Part shown: positions 8,228 through 39,016 of the stretch, one piece after another
Layout of the letters: the number at the start of each line of letters is the position of its first letter
Position numbering within the stretch: the stretch's first letter is position 1
Made by a program: the position numbers and the translations under genes
Origin: Alphaproteobacteria bacterium
GTDB lineage: Bacteria; Pseudomonadota; Alphaproteobacteria; Micavibrionales; Micavibrionaceae
Direction of reading: 5' to 3'
Assembly: GCA_021776075.1 (NCBI GenBank)
Contig: JAJFGQ010000017.1
Location: forward strand, 1 to 52,996
Length of the DNA: 52,996 bases
Notes under the pieces: model-generated
The model's database searches: none
Told to the model about the DNA's origin: nothing
What the model saw: the letters and a program-made list of their open reading frames with translations, nothing else

Positions 8228-8313
8228 GTTGGTGCGGTCGAGAAGAGTCGAACTTCCACGGGATTACTCCCACAGCGACCTCAACGCTGCGCGTCTACCA
8301 TTCCGCCACGACC
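8228..8313 (-). tRNA. tRNA-Leu (anticodon GAG)
   Basis: The reverse complement folds as a cloverleaf. 7-bp acceptor GCGGTCG/CGACCGC. Anticodon stem CAGCG/CGCTG with loop TTGAGGT. Long variable arm GGGAGTAATCCC. T-loop TTCGACT. Encoded CCA. Confidence 0.8.
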
Positions 8314-8401
8314 GCACTGCCGTGTGGATAGCAAATATAGCATATTTCTGCAAGCAGGAAGAAGCTTGCAATGCAATATCTTCGATACTATTTTTAAGCT
8401 C

Positions 8402-10364: not shown

Positions 10365-10435
10365 GGAATCCTTGAGTACTCATCATAGCTGTGTCTTATT
10401 ATAATCCTTTGAGATTAACAAAGGCAAAAGCCAAA

Positions 10436-11725
10436 ATGCATGATTTACGCGCGATCAGGAAAAATCCTGACTATTTTGATAAAGGCTGGCGCAGGCGGGG
10501 GCTTGATCCGCAAACGCCTGCTATTCTGAAACTCGATGAAGACCGTCGGGCTTTGCAGACCGAATTGCAGGAATTGCAGCAGAAGCGTAATGAAAAATCA
10601 AAAGAAATCGGCAAGATCAAGAGCCAGAAGGGCGATGCGCAGAGCCTTATGGATGAGGTGGCCACCCTGAAAACTCGTATGGCAGGGCTGGAGGAGCAGG
10701 AACAGACAATAGGTGAATCTCTGAACCAGCATTTGGCGGCCTTGCCGAATATCATGGATGATGATGTGCCGGATGGTGCGGATGAAGACGCTAATATAGA
10801 AGTGCGTAAACATGGCGAGCCGAAACGCCAGAATTCGGAAACGGCGGATCATGTGGCGATTGGTGAAATGCTCGGTATGATGGACTTTGAAACGGCGGCC
10901 AAACTTTCCGGTTCGCGCTTTGTTTTTCTTTGCCGGGGACTGGCGCGGATGGAGCGGGCGCTGGGGCAGTTTATGCTGGATACCCATATTGAAGAACACG
11001 GTTATCGTGAGATTTCACCGCCTTTGCTGGTACGGGATGAAGCCATGTTCGGTACGGGACAGTTGCCCAAATTCGCCGACGATCAGTTTCGTACCACGCG
11101 CGGTGATTGGCTCATCCCTACGGCCGAAGTGCCGCTCACCAATATTGTCGCGGATAGTATTCTTGACGGGGATGATTTGCCGCGTCGTTATACGGCCTAT
11201 ACGCCCTGTTTCCGTCAGGAAGCCGGAGCGGCGGGGAAAGACACGCGGGGTATTATTCGCCAGCACCAGTTTTATAAGGTGGAAATGGTGAGCATTGTTC
11301 ACCCGGATAAAAGTCAGGAAGAGCATGAACGCATGACGGGTTGCGCTGAAAATATCCTCAAGAAACTGGGTTTGTCGTTCCGTACGATGGTGCTGTGTAG
11401 CGGGGATACCGGTTTTGGTGCGCGCAAGACGTATGATCTTGAGGTCTGGTTGCCGGGACAGCAGCAATACCGCGAAATATCGAGCTGCTCAAACTGTGGT
11501 GATTTTCAGGCCCGGCGGATGAAGGCGCGTTTCCGCAAGAAAGACGAAAAGGATACGCAGTTCGTCCATACTTTGAATGGTTCCGGCGTGGCCATTGGCC
11601 GGGCTTTGGTCGCGGTGATGGAAAATTATCACGACCCGGCAGATGGCGGCGTGTTCGTGCCGGATGTCCTTAAACCCTATATGGGCGGGGTGGAGAAGAT
11701 TGTGCCGGAAGCAACGATGAGTTAG
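10436..11725 (+). CDS. serS: seryl-tRNA synthetase
   Basis: 429 aa from ATG 10436 ([12 protein letters not shown]). N-terminal coiled-coil arm plus class II aaRS core (motif 2 [21 protein letters not shown]). The ORF-track start at 10391 is a GTG extension. Confidence 0.92.
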
Positions 11726-11758: not shown

Positions 11759-12118
11759 CTACTGTGCAGGGGTTATTGATAAGGTTGCATTTGGTATTGT
11801 CCATCCTGCGGATCTTAAGAATTTCTGTTTTTCAACGGGCTCCCCCGTTTTTTCAACGCAATTGCTTTTGATTTTTTGCAGTTCTTCGCTTCTTATTGTT
11901 CTTGTTATTTTTTTGTTTTTAAGTGCGGGTAACACTACATCATTGTTAAAGGCGTCATTGAGTTTTTTATCAACGCATATATCTGCCTTTGTTTCTGATG
12001 TACCTGCAATTTTCTCCCAGATGATGTCATTTGCTGGTGCGCTCGTCTGTGCGTTGGCAGAACCGGTAGCAAGCGCTGTAAATAACAGTGCGATTGTGAG
12101 TGATGTTGTTTTTTTCAT
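11759..12118 (-). CDS. small secreted protein (119 aa)
   Basis: Internal ATG 12118 with AAAGGA SD. Signal peptide MKKTTSLTIALLFTALATGSANAQ. Two Cys in the mature part. Lies just downstream of the paralogous secreted gene array. Confidence 0.55.
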   Translation of the reverse strand: MKKTTSLTIALLFTALATGSANAQTSAPANDIIWEKIAGTSETKADICVDKKLNDAFNNDVVLPALKNKKITRTIRSEELQKIKSNCVEKTGEPVEKQKFLRSAGWTIPNATLSITPAQ

Positions 12119-12148
12119 GATCTTTATCCTTTGTATTGTCAATTCTGT

Positions 12149-13186
12149 CTAAAACCGTGGACCGCTGCGCGGGTTGTCAAAAAGACCGCCGCGCGGGGCC
12201 TGAGGTTTGTTGTCCTCTTGTGGTGCATCGTTATGTTCTTCTCCGGGAACATGATCATGCTCGTTTGAGCAGGAGGCATGATAGGCGCTGTCTAATTCCT
12301 GATTGTTGTGGAACAACTCTCTATAGCCTTCACCGGGTGTTTGTACAAAGTTTTGCAAGACAGTGCAGGCTCCGATGACATCACCGGAAATATCCCGAAT
12401 AGCTTTATTTTCTGCCAATGCTGGTACGGCGCTCCATTGTTCATCGGAGATATTACAAGCTTTGCGGAGGCTGTCGCCAAAAGGTGCCGCGTTGTATTCC
12501 GGTATTTTTTTACTACCCTTGGCCAATACATTGAGGCCTGGATGTTGTGCTATACCGGATGTAAGTTCCGTGCATGCCTTTTTAATGAGGTCCTGCGTAG
12601 AAAGAAGGGCAGGGGTTGTTTTTATATCGGCGCTTTTTTCTGCAACAGGTGCCGGATTAAAGTCAGGAACGGGGCCTTGCTTGCAGGCATATTCATGGCT
12701 GGCTTTGATTTTTGGGTCGGAAAAATACAACACGTTAAATTGTCTTGTTTTGCGGGCCAGTTCCTCGAAGGTATGGCAAGCGTCGCCAACAGTTGAGGAT
12801 ACAAATTCCTTAATCATGTTCTTGTTATGGGGGATTTCCTTCTGCTGATCTTCCGAGAAAGAGCAGGCATCATAGATGCTTCTCTGGAAGTAGCTGGAAT
12901 CGTAATCCGGTACGTGTGTGCTGCCGTTGAGCAGGACGCCAAAGCCGGGATATTCGGGCGCGAAACGTTCTCTCAGATATTTGCAGCCTTTCCTGATGTC
13001 TTTTGCTTTTTTTGCGTCAGAAAGGCCGTGTGTTTTATTCAGCACGGGCGCTTCGGCTTGCGATGGGGTTTGTTGTCCGCCGGAGCCTTCGCGTCTTTGT
13101 TGGGCATCAGCGTCAGAACCGATAGCGGCGATAAATGTGAAGGCAACGGCTAGCGTTCCGAGTGTTTTTGTCAGTGATTGAGACAT
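12149..13186 (-). CDS. secreted protein, two tandem copies of a 4-Cys domain (paralog 1)
   Basis: AGGAGG SD. Signal peptide MSQSLTKTLGTLAVAFTFIAAIGSDADAQ. Two internal domains, each with four Cys. The second domain carries KGSKKIPEYN and the motif KACNISDEQWSAVP, shared with paralogs at 13214 and 13759. Confidence 0.7.
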   Translation of the reverse strand: MSQSLTKTLGTLAVAFTFIAAIGSDADAQQRREGSGGQQTPSQAEAPVLNKTHGLSDAKKAKDIRKGCKYLRERFAPEYPGFGVLLNGSTHVPDYDSSYFQRSIYDACSFSEDQQKEIPHNKNMIKEFVSSTVGDACHTFEELARKTRQFNVLYFSDPKIKASHEYACKQGPVPDFNPAPVAEKSADIKTTPALLSTQDLIKKACTELTSGIAQHPGLNVLAKGSKKIPEYNAAPFGDSLRKACNISDEQWSAVPALAENKAIRDISGDVIGACTVLQNFVQTPGEGYRELFHNNQELDSAYHASCSNEHDHVPGEEHNDAPQEDNKPQAPRGGLFDNPRSGPRF

Positions 13187-13213
13187 GGTGTCCTCCTGTT
13201 AGTTTTATTGTTT

Positions 13214-13720
13214 TTATTTAGGGGTCGGTGTTTTTGGTTCAGCACCGCCCGCGCAGGCATATTGTAGGCTTTTGCCCAGTGCAAATGTGCCGTGGAATAA
13301 ATGGTAAAAACCCGGATCACTGTGGCTGAGGCTCATAAGGTTATTGCAGGCCTCACCGGCAAGGGCATCAATTTGTGCGGGTTCGATAGCGTCCTGTGAC
13401 GGGATGGCGTTCCAGTCAGTATCAGAAATGTTGCAGGCTTTTTTAAGGTTTGTACCGAGATGTACCGCATTGTAACCGGAAAAGACTTTGCTGCCCTTCA
13501 GCATAAGGCTCAGTCCGTCATGTAGGCCTAAAGCTCCTGATAGACGGGCGCAAGCGCCATATTTAACGGCAGTCCGCTCTTCTTTGGACATTTTGTTAAA
13601 ACCGCCGGGGCCTTCGCCTTGATGGTGCGATCCTTCGCTTTGTGCAAAAGCGTTTCCTGTCATGGCGACGGTAAAAGCAACAGCCAGTGTGCCAATCGTT
13701 TTTGCTGATAATATAGACAT
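13214..13720 (-). CDS. secreted 4-Cys-domain protein (paralog 2)
   Basis: AAGGAG SD. Signal peptide MSILSAKTIGTLAVAFTVAMTGNAFAQ. Motifs LKGSKVFSGYN and KKACNISDTDWNAIP. Confidence 0.7.
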   Translation of the reverse strand: MSILSAKTIGTLAVAFTVAMTGNAFAQSEGSHHQGEGPGGFNKMSKEERTAVKYGACARLSGALGLHDGLSLMLKGSKVFSGYNAVHLGTNLKKACNISDTDWNAIPSQDAIEPAQIDALAGEACNNLMSLSHSDPGFYHLFHGTFALGKSLQYACAGGAEPKTPTPK

Positions 13721-13758
13721 AATTTATTTCTCCTTATACGGGATACGAAGCACAGCCT

Positions 13759-14277
13759 TTATTGCGGTTGTGGCGCAGGGGTTTTCGGTTTTTGAAAAAA
13801 TTCCATCGCATCATGAAAGCCGTTATGCAACGCTTCGTTGCCGTGGAAAGCTTTCTCATAAGATGGAATGCTGTAGATGTTCTTATGCACGACGTCCACG
13901 GCACTGGCCGCCGCCGCTTTCAGCGTGTCTTTTGGCGCCTTATTTAGAAATTTTTGCATTGCCGGTAACGGTTTCATGTCATTCCAGGTTTCGTCTGACA
14001 TATTGCATTGTTGCTTTAGGGCGTTACCGAAATCTGTGCTGTCATAATCAGGGAAAGCGCTATGCCCTTTAAATATGAGTGTCAGGCCGGGATGCATTGT
14101 AAAACCTATGGCGAGATTGTCGCACATATTAATGTTTTTGGCTGTTTCCGGTGATATTGTCGGGCCGTTACCATGGCTTCCTTCTGGGTGATGCTGTTCC
14201 TGCGCCAGTGCAGAGCTACCCGTTGTTGCCAGAGCAAAAGCCATTGTTGCTATACTTAAAAGTTTTTTGACAGACAT
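13759..14277 (-). CDS. secreted 4-Cys-domain protein (paralog 3)
   Basis: Internal ATG 14277 with strong SD AAGGAGGAGG. Signal peptide MSVKKLLSIATMAFALATTGSSALAQ. Motifs HPGLTLIFKGHSAFPDYD and KQQCNMSDETWNDMKP. Confidence 0.7.
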   Translation of the reverse strand: MSVKKLLSIATMAFALATTGSSALAQEQHHPEGSHGNGPTISPETAKNINMCDNLAIGFTMHPGLTLIFKGHSAFPDYDSTDFGNALKQQCNMSDETWNDMKPLPAMQKFLNKAPKDTLKAAAASAVDVVHKNIYSIPSYEKAFHGNEALHNGFHDAMEFFQKPKTPAPQPQ

Positions 14278-14447
14278 GATGTCCTCCTCCTTATTCTTAA
14301 TTTTTTTTATGAAACTACGGGCACTTTGCATAAATTGGAATGTTATTGCAAATGGTTTTTTCAGAAAAACAATTATCATAGATTATTCTTCTTGGCGTCT
14401 TGCCGCACAGACTCTACAATAAAATTAGTTCGCTCAAAGGTCATTTC

Positions 14448-15131
14448 ATGAATTCTCAGGATACCCGTAAAATCAGGCTTGTGATGCTTCTGCGCAATGC
14501 AGGCATTACCGACACATCTGTTCTGGCCGCGATGGAAAGAGTGCCGCGTGACTTTTTTGTTCCGGCGGCTATGGCGGATCAGTCTTACGACGATATCGCC
14601 TTGCCTATCGGCAGGGGCCAGACGATTAGCCAGCCTTTGGTTGTGGCGACGATGACAGAGGCTTTGAAGCTGGATGATCGCTGTAAGGTGCTGGAAGTCG
14701 GTACAGGATCGGGTTACCAGAGTTGTGTTTTGGCGCATTTGTGCCGTCGCGTTTATACGATTGAGCGGCATAAGTCCCTTCTGATTGAGGCTTTGAAGAT
14801 GTTTGATGAGTTGAAGCTGCATAATATTACAGCGATTGCCGGGGACGGTATGAAGGGCTGGCCCGAACAGGCACCGTTTGACCGTATCATTGTAACGGCT
14901 GCTGCGCAGGGTGATCCGCCCTCTGCCTTGCTGGATCAGTTGAAAATTGGCGGTATTATGGTGGTTCCCGTGGCAACAAATGAACATCAGGTGTTGCGGC
15001 GCTATAAGAAGGAAGGGGAGGACACGTTTGCCGTGAAGGATTTAATGGGTGTGCGGTTTGTACCTTTGTTGCCAAACCTTGCCGCGCCCAGTGAGGGTTC
15101 GGATGGTGACATCAACAGGAAGCTGGCCTGA
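14448..15131 (+). CDS. pcm: protein-L-isoaspartate O-methyltransferase
   Basis: 227 aa from ATG 14448. SAM-binding motif VLEVGTGSGYQ. Conserved pcm-nlpD neighbourhood. Confidence 0.9.
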   Translation: MNSQDTRKIRLVMLLRNAGITDTSVLAAMERVPRDFFVPAAMADQSYDDIALPIGRGQTISQPLVVATMTEALKLDDRCKVLEVGTGSGYQSCVLAHLCRRVYTIERHKSLLIEALKMFDELKLHNITAIAGDGMKGWPEQAPFDRIIVTAAAQGDPPSALLDQLKIGGIMVVPVATNEHQVLRRYKKEGEDTFAVKDLMGVRFVPLLPNLAAPSEGSDGDINRKLA

Positions 15132-35174: not shown

Positions 35175-37085
35175 CTACTTCATGTTCGGTTTGTTATTAT
35201 CAGGGTTCTGTTTTTTCGACTGTTCGTATTTACGGCGCTCTTCATCCTGAAGGGTTTTCCAGTCGGGTTTGCCTACGGCAGTTTTGGGAAGTTCCTCTTC
35301 CACGAATTCAAAATGTTTCGGTGTTTCCATCCGGTTGATATGCGGTTCCAGAAACTTTTTCAGTTCTGCGATGTCCGGCGGATTTGTAACACCTGCTTTG
35401 AAGCGAATAAAGGCTTTGGCGGATTCTCCCGAGCGGTCATCCGGTACGCTGACGACAACACATTCGGCAATGTCGGGATGGTTGGCAATCGCGTTTTCAA
35501 CTTGTGCAGGATAGACGTTAAAGCCGTTGATAATCACAAGGCGTTTCTTGCGGTCGACAATGTGCAGATACATATCATCATCCAGATAGCCTAAATCGCC
35601 GGTATGGAGCCAGCCGTTTTTAATCATCTCGCCTGTTGCTTCCGGTTGGTTGTAATAGCCTTTCATGACCTGCGGGCCCTGCACGCAGATTTCACCAAGT
35701 TCGCCAATCTTCATGATCTTTTCGGGATTGTCGGGGTCGGCGATTTTAACAGTCGTTTTCGGATAGGGCATTCCGACGGATTCAGGCTTGTTTTTACCGT
35801 GGGGCGGATTACAGGAGATTACAGGAGATGACTCCGTCATACCGTAACCCTGTTTGACAACACCTTCTGTCCCAACGGCATCTTCAAAATCTTTATGGAC
35901 CCCGGAGGGTAGGGCAGCGCCGCCTGAAATGACGGCTTTTAAACTGGAGAGGTCTGCTTTTTTTGCATTTTTATTTTCAGCAATACCCTGTTGCTGCTTG
36001 GGAACAGACGGGAAGAAGGTCGGTTTCTTTTTATTGATGGCGTCAATTGTCATCTCCATATCACGGGGATTGGGGAGGATAATGATTTCCGTTCCTGTTT
36101 TCATGGCCGTCAGCATGGCAACCGTCATGCCGAAAACATGGAAATAAGGAATAGCGGCCAGTGTGCGTTCTTTGCCGTTTCTGACATAGGAACTGTCTTT
36201 CGGCTTGTTAGGGCTTTCGCCATAGAACTCAGCCGTCTGGAATAGATTGGCCACCAGATTAAAATGGGTCAGCATTGCCCCTTTGGGGATGCCTGTTGTG
36301 CCGCCCGTATATTGGAGGACGGCAACTTCATCCGGATCAATGGCAACGGAATGAAAATAACCGTTATTGTCGATGATATCCCTGAAATCGACGATGGCCG
36401 GTTTGTCGTCCTTTAAAGGGCGGATTTCCTGGGTTTCCTGATTGCTGCAAGGCCATTTACAGGCTTTGCGCATCATAAGATTCCCCATCTGCCAGTTCGT
36501 CATGTCCGGTTTGTCGGCTTTGGCTTTATCATAAGTCTCTTTAATCCGGTAGGCTTTGGCTTTCATATAGGGCAGGGCATCGCCCATCTGGCACTTGATA
36601 ATATGTTTGAGAGCGCCGCTTTTTTGCAGTGTTTCGGCTTTGTCAAAGAAGTCATGCTTGTCAATCGTGACCATGATTTCAGTGCCACTATCTTTAATCT
36701 GCGCCGCCAGCTCCTCAGTCGTGTAAAGCGGGCTGTAATTGACGACAGTTGCGCCAACGCGCAAGGCTGCAAAAAACATGACGGGATAAAAGGTCGTGTT
36801 GGGCATATACAGGCCAACCTTCGTTCCCTTGCCAACGCCCATATCCTGTAGCCCCGCAGCGGCGCGGCTGATCAGGTTCCCAATTTCCGTGTAGGTGAAC
36901 TTTTTACCGAGAAAGTCGACGCAGGGCCTGCTGCCGAACTTCACAATGGATTCGTCGATAACACGGACGAGGTCCACATGCGGGATGCCGATATCCCACT
37001 GTATACCTTCCGGGTAGTGCGCGGGTAACGACTCACCATTCGCAAGAGCCGGTTTTTTTTCTTTTTGTTTTTCGTCTTTCTGCAT
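35175..37085 (-). CDS. fadD: long-chain fatty acid--CoA ligase
   Basis: 636 aa. AMP-binding motifs (YTGGTTGIPKGAMLTH, GYGMTE) and an insertion typical of FadD-type enzymes. Confidence 0.9.
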   Translation of the reverse strand: MQKDEKQKEKKPALANGESLPAHYPEGIQWDIGIPHVDLVRVIDESIVKFGSRPCVDFLGKKFTYTEIGNLISRAAAGLQDMGVGKGTKVGLYMPNTTFYPVMFFAALRVGATVVNYSPLYTTEELAAQIKDSGTEIMVTIDKHDFFDKAETLQKSGALKHIIKCQMGDALPYMKAKAYRIKETYDKAKADKPDMTNWQMGNLMMRKACKWPCSNQETQEIRPLKDDKPAIVDFRDIIDNNGYFHSVAIDPDEVAVLQYTGGTTGIPKGAMLTHFNLVANLFQTAEFYGESPNKPKDSSYVRNGKERTLAAIPYFHVFGMTVAMLTAMKTGTEIIILPNPRDMEMTIDAINKKKPTFFPSVPKQQQGIAENKNAKKADLSSLKAVISGGAALPSGVHKDFEDAVGTEGVVKQGYGMTESSPVISCNPPHGKNKPESVGMPYPKTTVKIADPDNPEKIMKIGELGEICVQGPQVMKGYYNQPEATGEMIKNGWLHTGDLGYLDDDMYLHIVDRKKRLVIINGFNVYPAQVENAIANHPDIAECVVVSVPDDRSGESAKAFIRFKAGVTNPPDIAELKKFLEPHINRMETPKHFEFVEEELPKTAVGKPDWKTLQDEERRKYEQSKKQNPDNNKPNMK

Positions 37086-37213
37086 GACCGTGTTCAGGAC
37101 GCAAGGACGCGCCTTTCTCCCCCATTTATTATTAACGAGCCAAATGTTATGGCAACGATTACTTTGCGGTTATTATGTTAGATACCAACAGGAAAGTAAT
37201 AAGTAAAGTGACT

Positions 37214-37234
37214 TTGTGTGCTGCGCGCGCACAA
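37214..37234. promoter_or_regulatory. 21-bp palindrome TTGTGTGC-N5-GCGCACAA upstream of fadD; candidate operator
   Basis: Inverted repeat with 7/8 matching half-sites, ~130 bp upstream of the fadD start in an AT-rich promoter region. Confidence 0.3.
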
Positions 37235-37455
37235 TGCTTTATGTATATATTTTGTTTTCTTAAGTTTTTCTTGAGATATGACAAGGACGTAAATATAGAA
37301 AATAAAAAAATACGTTAAAATGTTCTTGGAATATATTCCTATTTATGCTATGGTTTAAAAATCAACGGGAGCTGTGCGCCAAAATTCAAAAGGGCGAACG
37401 GCTTTTTTTTATGCATAAATTTTTTCCCAAACAAAACAAAAAAGGACAATAAGTT

Positions 37456-37737
37456 ATGGCACTTTTCAGTGGTTTTTCTGATTTCCTGAAGAAATCGGTT
37501 GGCAATAATATGGAGAATAAACCGGAGGACGTCCGCACGGCCAAACGAAATCTGAGCGGGCTTAGGTTGATGGATGAGGATGACGCGGCGGAGAACGATA
37601 GGCGTATGGAGACGGAAGGAAAGGCAAAACAGTTTCGTGTCTTTGGTTCCAGATTGCAAAAAGTAAAAGGGTTTATTGAAATTGATAATGGAAAACTTAA
37701 AAGCTCTAATTTCGAATGGGAAGACATTAACCAGTGA
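37456..37737 (+). CDS. possible small protein (93 aa) at the edge of an AT-rich island
   Basis: ATG with AAAGGA SD 6 nt upstream. Charged, no recognisable motif. Confidence 0.3.
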   Translation: MALFSGFSDFLKKSVGNNMENKPEDVRTAKRNLSGLRLMDEDDAAENDRRMETEGKAKQFRVFGSRLQKVKGFIEIDNGKLKSSNFEWEDINQ

Positions 37738-37767
37738 GCGTTGGCAAGATTTAAATAAAAGTTTTTC

Positions 37768-38492
37768 ATGGAAACACTTGATGATATTTTGGCCCGTTTA
37801 TTGTTATTGGCTGGCCATTATAATGGCAGGCGGTTTTTCCCCCTCTCTGATGGATATGGAAATTATGATGTTACCAAGGGAATAAAAGCTTATTCTGATA
37901 TCTTTGTTTATCTGATTGCTCTTTATTTTCTTTATTTTTATGTCATCAGAAGTTGGAAAAGAGCAGCTCAATTCGGAGGGCATTTTATTGCAATCTGGCT
38001 ACTAATGCCCATTTTTAAAAATCTGGCCATTTTCTATTTGACGTTCAGTCGCGCATGTTCATTTGATCTGGACTGTGCGTGGAGTGACTTCTTTTTTATG
38101 GTTTCGAAAGAAGGATTCTTCTAACAAAACTGTCTCTAATTTTGATCCCAAGGACGATCCCAAACTTGATAAACTGATACTGGATACAGCAGTAAGCGAC
38201 CGGCTTTTGGATAACCGGTTGCGTGTGGATGTCCGCGATCTGCGCCGGAAATTCCCCGGTTTTGATTCCGCACCGGTGGAGGCACAGCAGGCGCTTTTGG
38301 ATATGGCGTTCAATCTTGGGTAATACACAGTTTCAGGAAGCAAACTGGCCCACCCTTTTTGCGGCTGTGAAAGCAGGAGACTGGGTAACGGCGGCGCGGG
38401 AGTCGCAGCGTAAAGATGTTGGTGCTGATAGAAATCAGAGAATCCGTAAATTGTTTGAAGACGCGCATAAGCGGCAGCAACAGCAACCCTGA
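37768..38492 (+). pseudogene. T4-type (GH24) lysozyme remnant, split across three reading frames
   Basis: Frame of 38063-38323 ends ...SAPVEAQQALLDMAFNLG*. Frame of 38223-38492 continues NTQFQEANWPTLFAAVKAGDWVTAARESQRKDVGADRNQRIRKLFEDA. Together these align to the T4 lysozyme C-terminal ~110 residues ([64 protein letters not shown]). A single extra T after GGG at ~38313 breaks the frame. The upstream frame at 37768 (DGYGNYDVTKGIKAYS) weakly resembles the N-terminal TIGIGHLLTKSPSL region, but the catalytic part is degraded. Confidence 0.5.
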
Positions 38493-38500
38493 TAGAGCTA

Positions 38501-39016
38501 TTAACGGGTATAGGTGCTAAGATTATGGAATAAATTGTTTCTGTTATACTCACATACGTTGTTGGTTTCGTTTTGAAGCCGCTCCCAATGGATATGGGCT
38601 GGTAAATACCAGTCTTTTTGGAATAGATCGCAATGTTGGTAGGTTACCCATACAGTATTATCAGGTCTTGTATGTGGTGGGTCAATAATGTACCGGACAT
38701 ATTTCCAGCGTGGATTAATCAGGGTAGAATTTGGATCTGTGTCTTCTTCCCGCACGATTGTATAGACATAGCCATTTTCGATATGGAACACCTTATAATA
38801 CTGTATCATGACAAGCTCTTTGGTGTCATTATTTACGCGGTGTTCAATAATGCCGTCAGGTCGTACGTCTATGCCAATAATACCGGAGGCCCTGCCGCGA
38901 GGTCTCCAGTACCCCAGAAACTCTTCGGGCATAGGCAAATAGCCGTTATCCTGCGGCGGCGTCGTGACGCAGGCGGTGAGGGATAACAGCAATATGACAG
39001 TGAGTAGTAATCTCAT
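38501..39016 (-). CDS. lipoprotein, hypothetical
   Basis: MRLLLTVILLLSLTAC lipobox. 171 aa, Trp/Tyr-rich, no known motif. Confidence 0.6.
   Translation of the reverse strand: MRLLLTVILLLSLTACVTTPPQDNGYLPMPEEFLGYWRPRGRASGIIGIDVRPDGIIEHRVNNDTKELVMIQYYKVFHIENGYVYTIVREEDTDPNSTLINPRWKYVRYIIDPPHTRPDNTVWVTYQHCDLFQKDWYLPAHIHWERLQNETNNVCEYNRNNLFHNLSTYTR

Follow-up and report, generated by a model that had tools for sequence, protein, structure and literature searches.

The question raised by this locus was what is encoded between the housekeeping genes serS and pcm of an alphaproteobacterium, and what its products might do outside the cytoplasm. The DNA analysed, referred to as the window, is a stretch of 52,996 nucleotides (nt) assigned to the family Micavibrionaceae (GenBank assembly GCA_021776075.1, contig JAJFGQ010000017.1). 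On its minus strand, a cassette of four genes, p172, p168, p345 and p120, is located at 11759-14277, flanked by serS (10391-11725, plus strand) on the p120 side and by pcm (about 14448-15131, plus strand) on the p172 side. The products of the first three genes are referred to as family A, and those resembling p120 as family B. Family A is almost certainly a previously undescribed exported domain family which occupies a fixed site in a narrow clade and is accompanied by a conserved dyad.

BLASTP comparison revealed that p168 (13214-13720, 168 amino acids (aa)), p172 (13759-14277, 172 aa) and both halves of p345 (12149-13186, 345 aa) were related, with E values of 1e-17 to 3e-21 over ~120 aligned residues, a paralogy far beyond chance. 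The domain spans aa 39-164 of p172 (13786-14163) and aa 42-162 of p168 (13235-13597), and p345 carries it twice, at aa 53-174 (12665-13030) and, after a Pro-rich linker, at aa 189-312 (12251-12622). A first-pass annotation, made from the sequence alone, had described tandem exported paralogs carrying one or two domain copies, encoded by three minus-strand genes of 345, 168 and 172 aa, each with a Shine-Dalgarno (SD) site and a signal peptide. This description was borne out by the open reading frames (ORFs), the SD sites, BLASTP and the heuristic export signals, including the end coordinate 14277.

A profile of the four window domains was searched against 1.84 billion representative proteins. 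The search returned 13 proteins, namely the three window proteins (p168 as P0001; p345 as P0002, E 1e-94 in two stretches; p172 as P0003, E 4.5e-43), nine relatives (E 9e-25 to 1e-4) and one repeat artefact. The latter, P0013 (3209 aa; about 16 repeats at 169-residue spacing), was rejected as a false positive whose E value of 1.5e-4 was obtained by summing sub-threshold repeat matches. The ten clusters formed by the nine relatives and p345 contained 1-4 sequences each among about 15 billion, and the relatives were named 'hypothetical protein' wherever the source supplied a name. Word-index searches with p168 and with a 19-domain profile gave only the query itself and one JGI protein, and a four-sequence alignment of the 2-Cys type had no match in GTDB genomes and one contig in metagenomes. 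No family could be assigned at E<=1 to p345 and p172 in Pfam and NCBIfam, or to p168 in Pfam; the matches of p168 to NCBIfam bchC (E 0.15) and of p120 to Herpes_U44 (E 0.014) were regarded as noise. The window proteins had no match in PHROGs or PADLOC, a Pfam scan of 19 single family domains gave single-member matches at E 0.04-0.23 only, and the best E value of the family profile against PDB sequences was 0.3.

The AlphaFold2 model of the p168 domain, built on the 19-domain alignment (A3), had a predicted local distance difference test score (pLDDT) of 95.3 and a predicted template modelling score (pTM) of 0.85. In this model the family-A unit is an all-alpha domain of ~120 residues with seven predicted helices (5-22, 27-34, 45-54, 59-63, 73-93, 95-103 and 105-116). 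Foldseek returned no match at E <= 0.001 for the model (best E 1.9 in PDB and 0.85 in BFVD, a collection of viral models), and family A may provisionally be regarded as a new fold with respect to PDB and BFVD, the two collections covered. The domain had gone unrecognised in the first-pass annotation, and it was matched in none of these sequence and structure collections. Family A is thus without a relative in sequence or solved structure; with a confident prediction of its structure, it could readily be given a domain-of-unknown-function (DUF)-type entry and be solved experimentally. Many other exported families of uncultured bacteria are likewise uncharacterised, and the wider importance of this one is unproven.

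Near-invariant positions were Cys1, the Gly of a PG motif, Cys2 and one Pro. Cys1 and Cys2 were present in all 23 complete domains, and Cys3 and Cys4 occurred as a pair in 17 and were missing as a pair in 6, with no domain having just one of them; L088_184, whose row in the alignment is truncated, has all four Cys in its full sequence. In the model, Cys1 lies within helix 1, Cys2 caps helix 3, and Cys3 and Cys4 lie within helices 5 and 7. Since Cys3 and Cys4 co-occur and the positions fit helix-to-helix staples, two local disulfides, Cys1-Cys2 and Cys3-Cys4, can be inferred from the helix boundaries. The four-Cys pattern proposed by the first-pass annotation holds for three of the four window domains, those of p168 (4-Cys subtype) and p345 (8 Cys); p172, of the 2-Cys subtype, retains only C52 and C91, with Cys3 and Cys4 replaced by Val and Met. 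The sequence blocks described there as conserved occur in degenerate versions in domain 1 of p345 (YPGF..NGS; CSFSEDQQ).

To place the cassette, the flanking genes were compared between genomes. The window Pcm was 80% identical to that of a metagenome-assembled genome (MAG) labelled Rhodospirillales HK-STAS-PROT-28, 70-77% to those of several alphaproteobacterial MAGs, and 58-65% to those of MAGs labelled Micavibrio. The order maeB-lipB-FGase-serS-(gap)-pcm-nlpD-...-secDF was common to most of these genomes, and in the window and in loci L084-L088 the cassette is bordered by serS, FGase, lipB and maeB at one end and by pcm, nlpD, DUF3592, yajC and secDF at the other. Family A lies directly upstream of pcm, and divergent from it, in every recovered context with flanking genes (the window, a JGI contig of 4445 bp, the L002 fragment, L084/L085, L086, L087 and L088), and contigs long enough to show the other end of the cassette have serS there (window, L086 and L088). 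The cassette has the same GC content as the remainder of the window (0.48-0.49). Given this native GC and the conserved position across genomes, horizontal transfer was rejected, and the cassette has been inherited within a small clade of alphaproteobacteria related to Micavibrio.

The content of the cassette varies between genomes in both gene number and domain number. The window carries family-A genes of 172, 168 and 345 aa followed by p120; the JGI contig carries genes of 206 aa (P0014) and 347 aa (P0006) followed by uncharacterised 314- and 80-aa genes; and L084 carries genes of 309 and 348 aa, with no small genes seen after them. L085 is a second copy of the L084 cassette, so that the seven recovered cassette loci (L002 and L083-L088) represent six distinct cassettes. 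L086 has one 362-aa gene followed by three two-Cys genes and serS, L087 one 334-aa gene followed by one small lipoprotein-like gene, and L088 genes of 184, 282 and 170 aa followed, without small genes, by serS. L083, on a contig named Hain-H41 which is apparently of groundwater origin, is a cassette without flanks (325 and 160 aa, then two small genes), and L002 is a single-gene fragment of family A. The family was absent from all 80 pcm loci of GTDB species representatives.

Beyond these cassettes, the serS-pcm junction in loci L003-L026 varies in content. Most Micavibrio-like MAGs have no gene there, serS adjoining pcm directly; in L007 and L015 the junction holds about 1.7-2 kb of unrelated genes, including a 594-aa membrane protein in L015; and in more distant alphaproteobacteria the two genes are about 0.8 kb apart, with surE presumably located between them. 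Locus L004 (PWWY01000020.1, 2583 bp), from a MAG labelled Syntrophomonadaceae, has serS-pcm-nlpD in the alphaproteobacterial gene order with 73-77% identity to the window in serS/pcm and 55% in the nlpD fragment, and is probably a mis-binned contig.

Between the family-bearing genomes, the flanking products were well conserved (Pcm 74-80%, SerS 71-75% and SecD 67-72% identity), and family-A members compared between these genomes shared 22-37% identity; family-A proteins thus diverge far faster than the products of the flanking genes. Within the window the paralogs were 23-30% identical over the aligned domain columns. A neighbour-joining (NJ) tree of the domains, computed without bootstrap values, had long branches, and some groups spanned genomes, such as p172 with P0014 and L086 domain 1. 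Because of the low identity and these mixed groups, the paralogs look tentatively old rather than recently expanded. With regard to the first-pass annotation, the family was clade-restricted in the representative-protein and locus searches, as had been suggested, and its copy number varied among clade genomes; the low identity and the grouping with members from other genomes spoke against a recent expansion. A host-associated setting was not supported, as the closest genomes are Micavibrio-related MAGs from the environment and one relative lies on the Hain-H41 contig, and the adhesin, effector or stress roles put forward there are guesses. That annotation did not cover the constant location between serS and pcm, the dyad upstream, or the His-cluster subclass described below. 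The locus illustrates clearly how a hypervariable cassette can be kept at one site of the core genome together with a conserved control element of its own, here in a little-studied predator-related lineage.

This pattern of divergence bears on one rival explanation, in which the proteins are fast-evolving surface or secreted recognition proteins acting against other cells, as in prey attachment or as effectors, and the Cys/Gly/Pro scaffold displays variable surfaces that track their targets. It is rather unlikely, and it would account for several observations: the low identity within the family beside conserved flanks, the confinement of conservation to structural residues, the variable copy and domain number, and the fact that L003, the closest GTDB genome, has lost the family. 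Among named organisms the closest relatives are Micavibrio, which is described as an obligate bacterial predator (PMC7034301). However, predation in this clade would be a presumption, and at least one Micavibrionales MAG is proposed to be photoheterotrophic (PMC9933672). The absence of the cassette from the Micavibrio MAG loci examined counts both for and against this reading. Moreover, no secretion-system gene, adhesin repeat or enzyme domain is found nearby, and the His cluster found in every recovered cassette is left unexplained by recognition.

Alignment of the regions upstream of the first family genes revealed a dyad of the general form TTTGCA-N15/16-TGCAAA, more fully TTT(G/C)TTTGCAATAA-N8-9-(G)ATATGCAAA(G/T)T. 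In the window it is present as TTTGCA-N16-TGCAAA at 14325-14352 (minus strand), 47 nt upstream of the p172 ATG, and is the only exact match (0.11 expected by chance). It occurs once in each of the 7 family-bearing loci (six distinct cassettes), before the first family gene: L002 320-346, L083 7-33, L084 6956-6982, L085 813-839, L086 7928-7954, L087 5967-5993 and L088 5379-5405. The distance to the start codon was 38-49 nt in the window, L002, L083, L084, L086 and L088. In L087 the dyad lies 7 nt from the called ATG, and the distance would be similar if the true start were an internal Met. None of 81 other loci, including L003, contained the dyad, and since it is absent upstream of pcm in these loci without the family, it belongs to the cassette and not to pcm. 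The dyad is probably a promoter or operator of the cassette; if a promoter, it may include a site for an activator. It could serve to identify the regulator and the remaining regulon, and through them what the proteins do.

A sigma-54 reading of the dyad was rejected because the spacer is not conserved: in the window the GG/GC spacing is off by one, and the other loci do not share the GG. Operators of the Fur/Mur/Irr/RirA type in alphaproteobacteria are contiguous palindromes of 17-19 bp, for example the 19-bp MRS/Fur-alpha box. The dyad, with 6-bp arms 15-16 nt apart, fits neither the iron control element (ICE) consensus TTTAGAA-N3-TTCTAAA nor the RirA box TGA-N9-TCA (PMC1698941). A scan for promoter and terminator consensus sequences gave matches not above shuffled expectation.

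The position beside pcm is relevant to a second rival, in which the proteins are periplasmic stress chaperones that, like HdeA/HdeB or Spy, hold unfolding envelope proteins; co-regulation with pcm would fit such a function. HdeA and HdeB are small exported all-alpha acid-stress chaperones braced by a disulfide and encoded by adjacent paralogs in one operon. Family A likewise consists of small all-alpha exported disulfide proteins in tandem, divergent from the protein-repair gene pcm in every recovered locus across a shared control region of 140-210 bp. The likeness to HdeA/HdeB is in organisation only, with no sequence or fold match; the family-A domain is larger (about 120 aa, seven helices), has two disulfides by prediction, and also occurs in two-domain proteins. 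The dyad, absent upstream of pcm in the 81 family-less loci, behaves as an element of the cassette, and chaperones are usually better conserved. This explanation is very unlikely.

The four genes are most likely one transcript, as judged from the SD sites located 6-10 nt before each ATG (AGGAGG, AAGGAG, AAGGAGGAGG and AAGGA) and the short gaps of 38, 27 and 30 nt between p172, p168, p345 and p120. A longer ORF of 206 aa starting at 14379 was considered for the p172 gene and rejected in favour of the start at 14277, because the dyad falls inside the longer ORF and a strong SD site precedes the ATG at 14277. Signal peptides were evaluated by a heuristic scan of the n-region, hydrophobic core and cleavage site. 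All four window proteins had a positive n-region, a 12-residue hydrophobic core (mean Kyte-Doolittle 2.1-2.4) and an A-x-A|Q site (ALA|Q, AFA|Q, ADA|Q and ANA|Q across the four), as in type I Sec signal peptides, and the A-x-A|Q pattern could also be seen in most full-length relatives. The predicted peptides comprise aa 1-25 of p172 (14203-14277), aa 1-26 of p168 (13643-13720), aa 1-28 of p345 (13103-13186) and aa 1-23 of p120. No lipobox, twin-Arg motif or later transmembrane segment was found in the four proteins, and none has a Cys within its first 45 residues, as a lipoprotein would; prepilin and lipoprotein processing were rejected on the N-terminal sequences. By these heuristic calls, p172, p168, p345 and p120 would be exported by Sec with a type I signal peptide.

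Once cleaved at A-x-A, nearly all mature family-A proteins would begin with Gln. C-terminal tails and linkers rich in Pro and Lys are common in the family, and most of its proteins end directly after Cys4 in short tails of this kind (EPKTPTPK, KPKTPAPQPQ, PEPKAP and PEPKKP); the C-tail of p172 is Pro-rich.

As to function, the positions conserved in at least half of the domains (>=50%) were only Cys, Gly, Pro, Tyr and hydrophobic residues, and no polar residue was conserved family-wide among the 23 domains. This argues against an enzyme and for a non-enzymatic binding module. Our best guess, itself unproven, is that the family-A proteins are non-enzymatic extracytoplasmic binding proteins, possibly metal-binding.

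The possible metal binding comes from a subclass of domains. Alignment columns 87/91/101/111 read HHHH in four domains from four contigs, namely P0014, L086 domain 1, the 160-aa L083 protein (a single-domain member, gene 1088-1570) and domain 1 of L084_309. Three of the four His columns are occupied in p172 and L087 domain 1, and L088_170 has two His together with Glu and Met. In the p168 model the four columns correspond to residues 88/92/102/112 (M, H, H, Q). At least one such His-type domain is present in every recovered cassette and also in the single-gene fragment L002. Helix 5 ends in an H-x3-H pair, a further His closes helix 6, and another lies on helix 7, three positions ahead of Cys4. 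Judged from the helix boundaries of the model, the columns would be at equal height on helices 5-7 and one turn away from Cys3 and Cys4, and the four His could converge on one site. Several His-type proteins also have tails rich in His, Gly and Met (SEGSHHQGEGPGG, QEQHHPEGSHGNG, QMHEGGGNHHN, ADMESHMEKMPPM and GGGHDGEHQHNPDHHM). The first of these is the N-tail of p168 and the second the His/Gly-rich N-tail of p172; in p345 a His/acid-rich C-tail, NEHDHVPGEEHND, follows domain 2.

The proposed mechanism can be outlined as follows. The proteins would be cleaved by signal peptidase I, and the mature forms, with two disulfides joining helices, would fold either in the periplasm or extracellularly. 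Family-A proteins would then serve as non-enzymatic binding modules in which the His-type domain binds a metal ion, or possibly haem, and the other domains and the small family-B proteins would be its partners. The cassette as a whole would be a regulated extracytoplasmic module for metal handling or buffering. That the His-type domains bind metal or haem and the cassette is such a module is a reading we favour only tentatively.

Several points weigh against it. All four His are found in only 4 of the 23 domains, and within the window p168 has two and domain 1 of p345 lacks them altogether, so that a metal site is not a defining feature of family A. The co-occurrence of the His may partly reflect shared ancestry, because the His-type domains share one part of the unbootstrapped NJ tree. 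Their clustering in space, like the Cys-Cys distances, would follow from helix boundaries alone, and export from heuristic signal-peptide calls. Fast divergence and copy-number flux are commoner in organism-facing proteins than in metal-homeostasis proteins, and no transporter, regulator or metal enzyme adjoins the cassette. A more specific version, in which family A is a new-fold family whose His-type members hold a three- or four-His metal or haem site by a helix-stapling disulfide and, together with family B, form a dyad-controlled regulon private to the clade, is improbable; if true, metal capture at contact with other cells would be a possible role.

Comparison with known metal-binding helical bundles revealed a partial likeness. 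These are all-alpha, about 90-95 residues superpose, and some family-A members have a His/Glu-bearing helix face. However, the bundles consist of four long helices, against seven helices in the family-A model with only two of at least 18 residues, and the E-x-x-H motifs of di-iron sites are not conserved in family A: a search for ferritin-like features found no conserved Glu column and no E-x-x-H when the columns shared by 12 or more of the 23 domains were inspected. Family A further differs in being exported and disulfide-bonded by prediction and in lacking a Pfam match. The periplasmic Met/His-rich copper-binding helical proteins CopM / DUF305 (5fej, 3bt5) have no sequence match to family A, which differs in that the His are conserved in a subclass only and in its two inferred disulfides and Pro-rich tails.

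The neighbourhood of the cassette bears on a third rival, in which the proteins are periplasmic immunity or inhibitor proteins against cell-wall-degrading enzymes or toxins of the cell itself or of a competitor, comparable to orphan arrays of exported immunity paralogs. Small exported paralogs in tandem that diverge quickly, vary in copy number and have helical domains braced by disulfides would suit this function. Against it, no toxin or hydrolase partner is present in or beside any recovered cassette, the neighbours being the housekeeping genes serS and pcm-nlpD, and no toxin domain, as expected of a toxin-immunity or polymorphic-toxin system, was found among the neighbours in the window and L084-L088. 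There are no mobile-element signatures, the GC is native, and no immunity family was matched in PADLOC or Pfam. Immunity is a quite improbable function.

The last gene of the operon, p120 (11759-12118, minus strand), encodes a protein of 119 aa which starts with MKKTT and has two Cys, C48 and C87. The fourth small secreted gene reported by the first-pass annotation is thus present, but its product is unrelated to family A by hhalign (probability 0.2%). On this result the idea that family B is a diverged half of family A was rejected, in spite of the similar Cys spacing of 38-39 residues. Nine relatives of p120 were found, and together they form family B, a group of small, loosely related exported two-Cys proteins with the motif A-D-x-C-V ... 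C. The AlphaFold model of p120 was poor (pLDDT 56), with a helix hairpin, 44-60/77-91, bearing both Cys. Besides the window, family-B genes are located in L003 (8180-9889), L083 (1590-2214), L086 (9107-10165) and L087 (7021-7335). They trail the family-A genes in L083, L086 and L087, and in L003 three p120-like genes occupy the serS-pcm gap without family A. Two family-B relatives, the L083 gene 1924-2214 and the 104-aa gene of L087, have lipobox-like sequences (LTFSGC / AVAGC).

Elsewhere in the window, the sole match of an Rfam scan was a tRNA at 8233-8315. The stretch 37000-39016 has a low GC content (0.38 at 37-38 kb) and contains only short ORFs without Pfam matches. A lysozyme-like reading of the ORFs at 38063-38492 was a visual impression which Pfam did not support, and it was rejected. 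Beyond the low-GC stretch lies the gene of a 171-aa protein that carries a lipobox-like LSLTAC.

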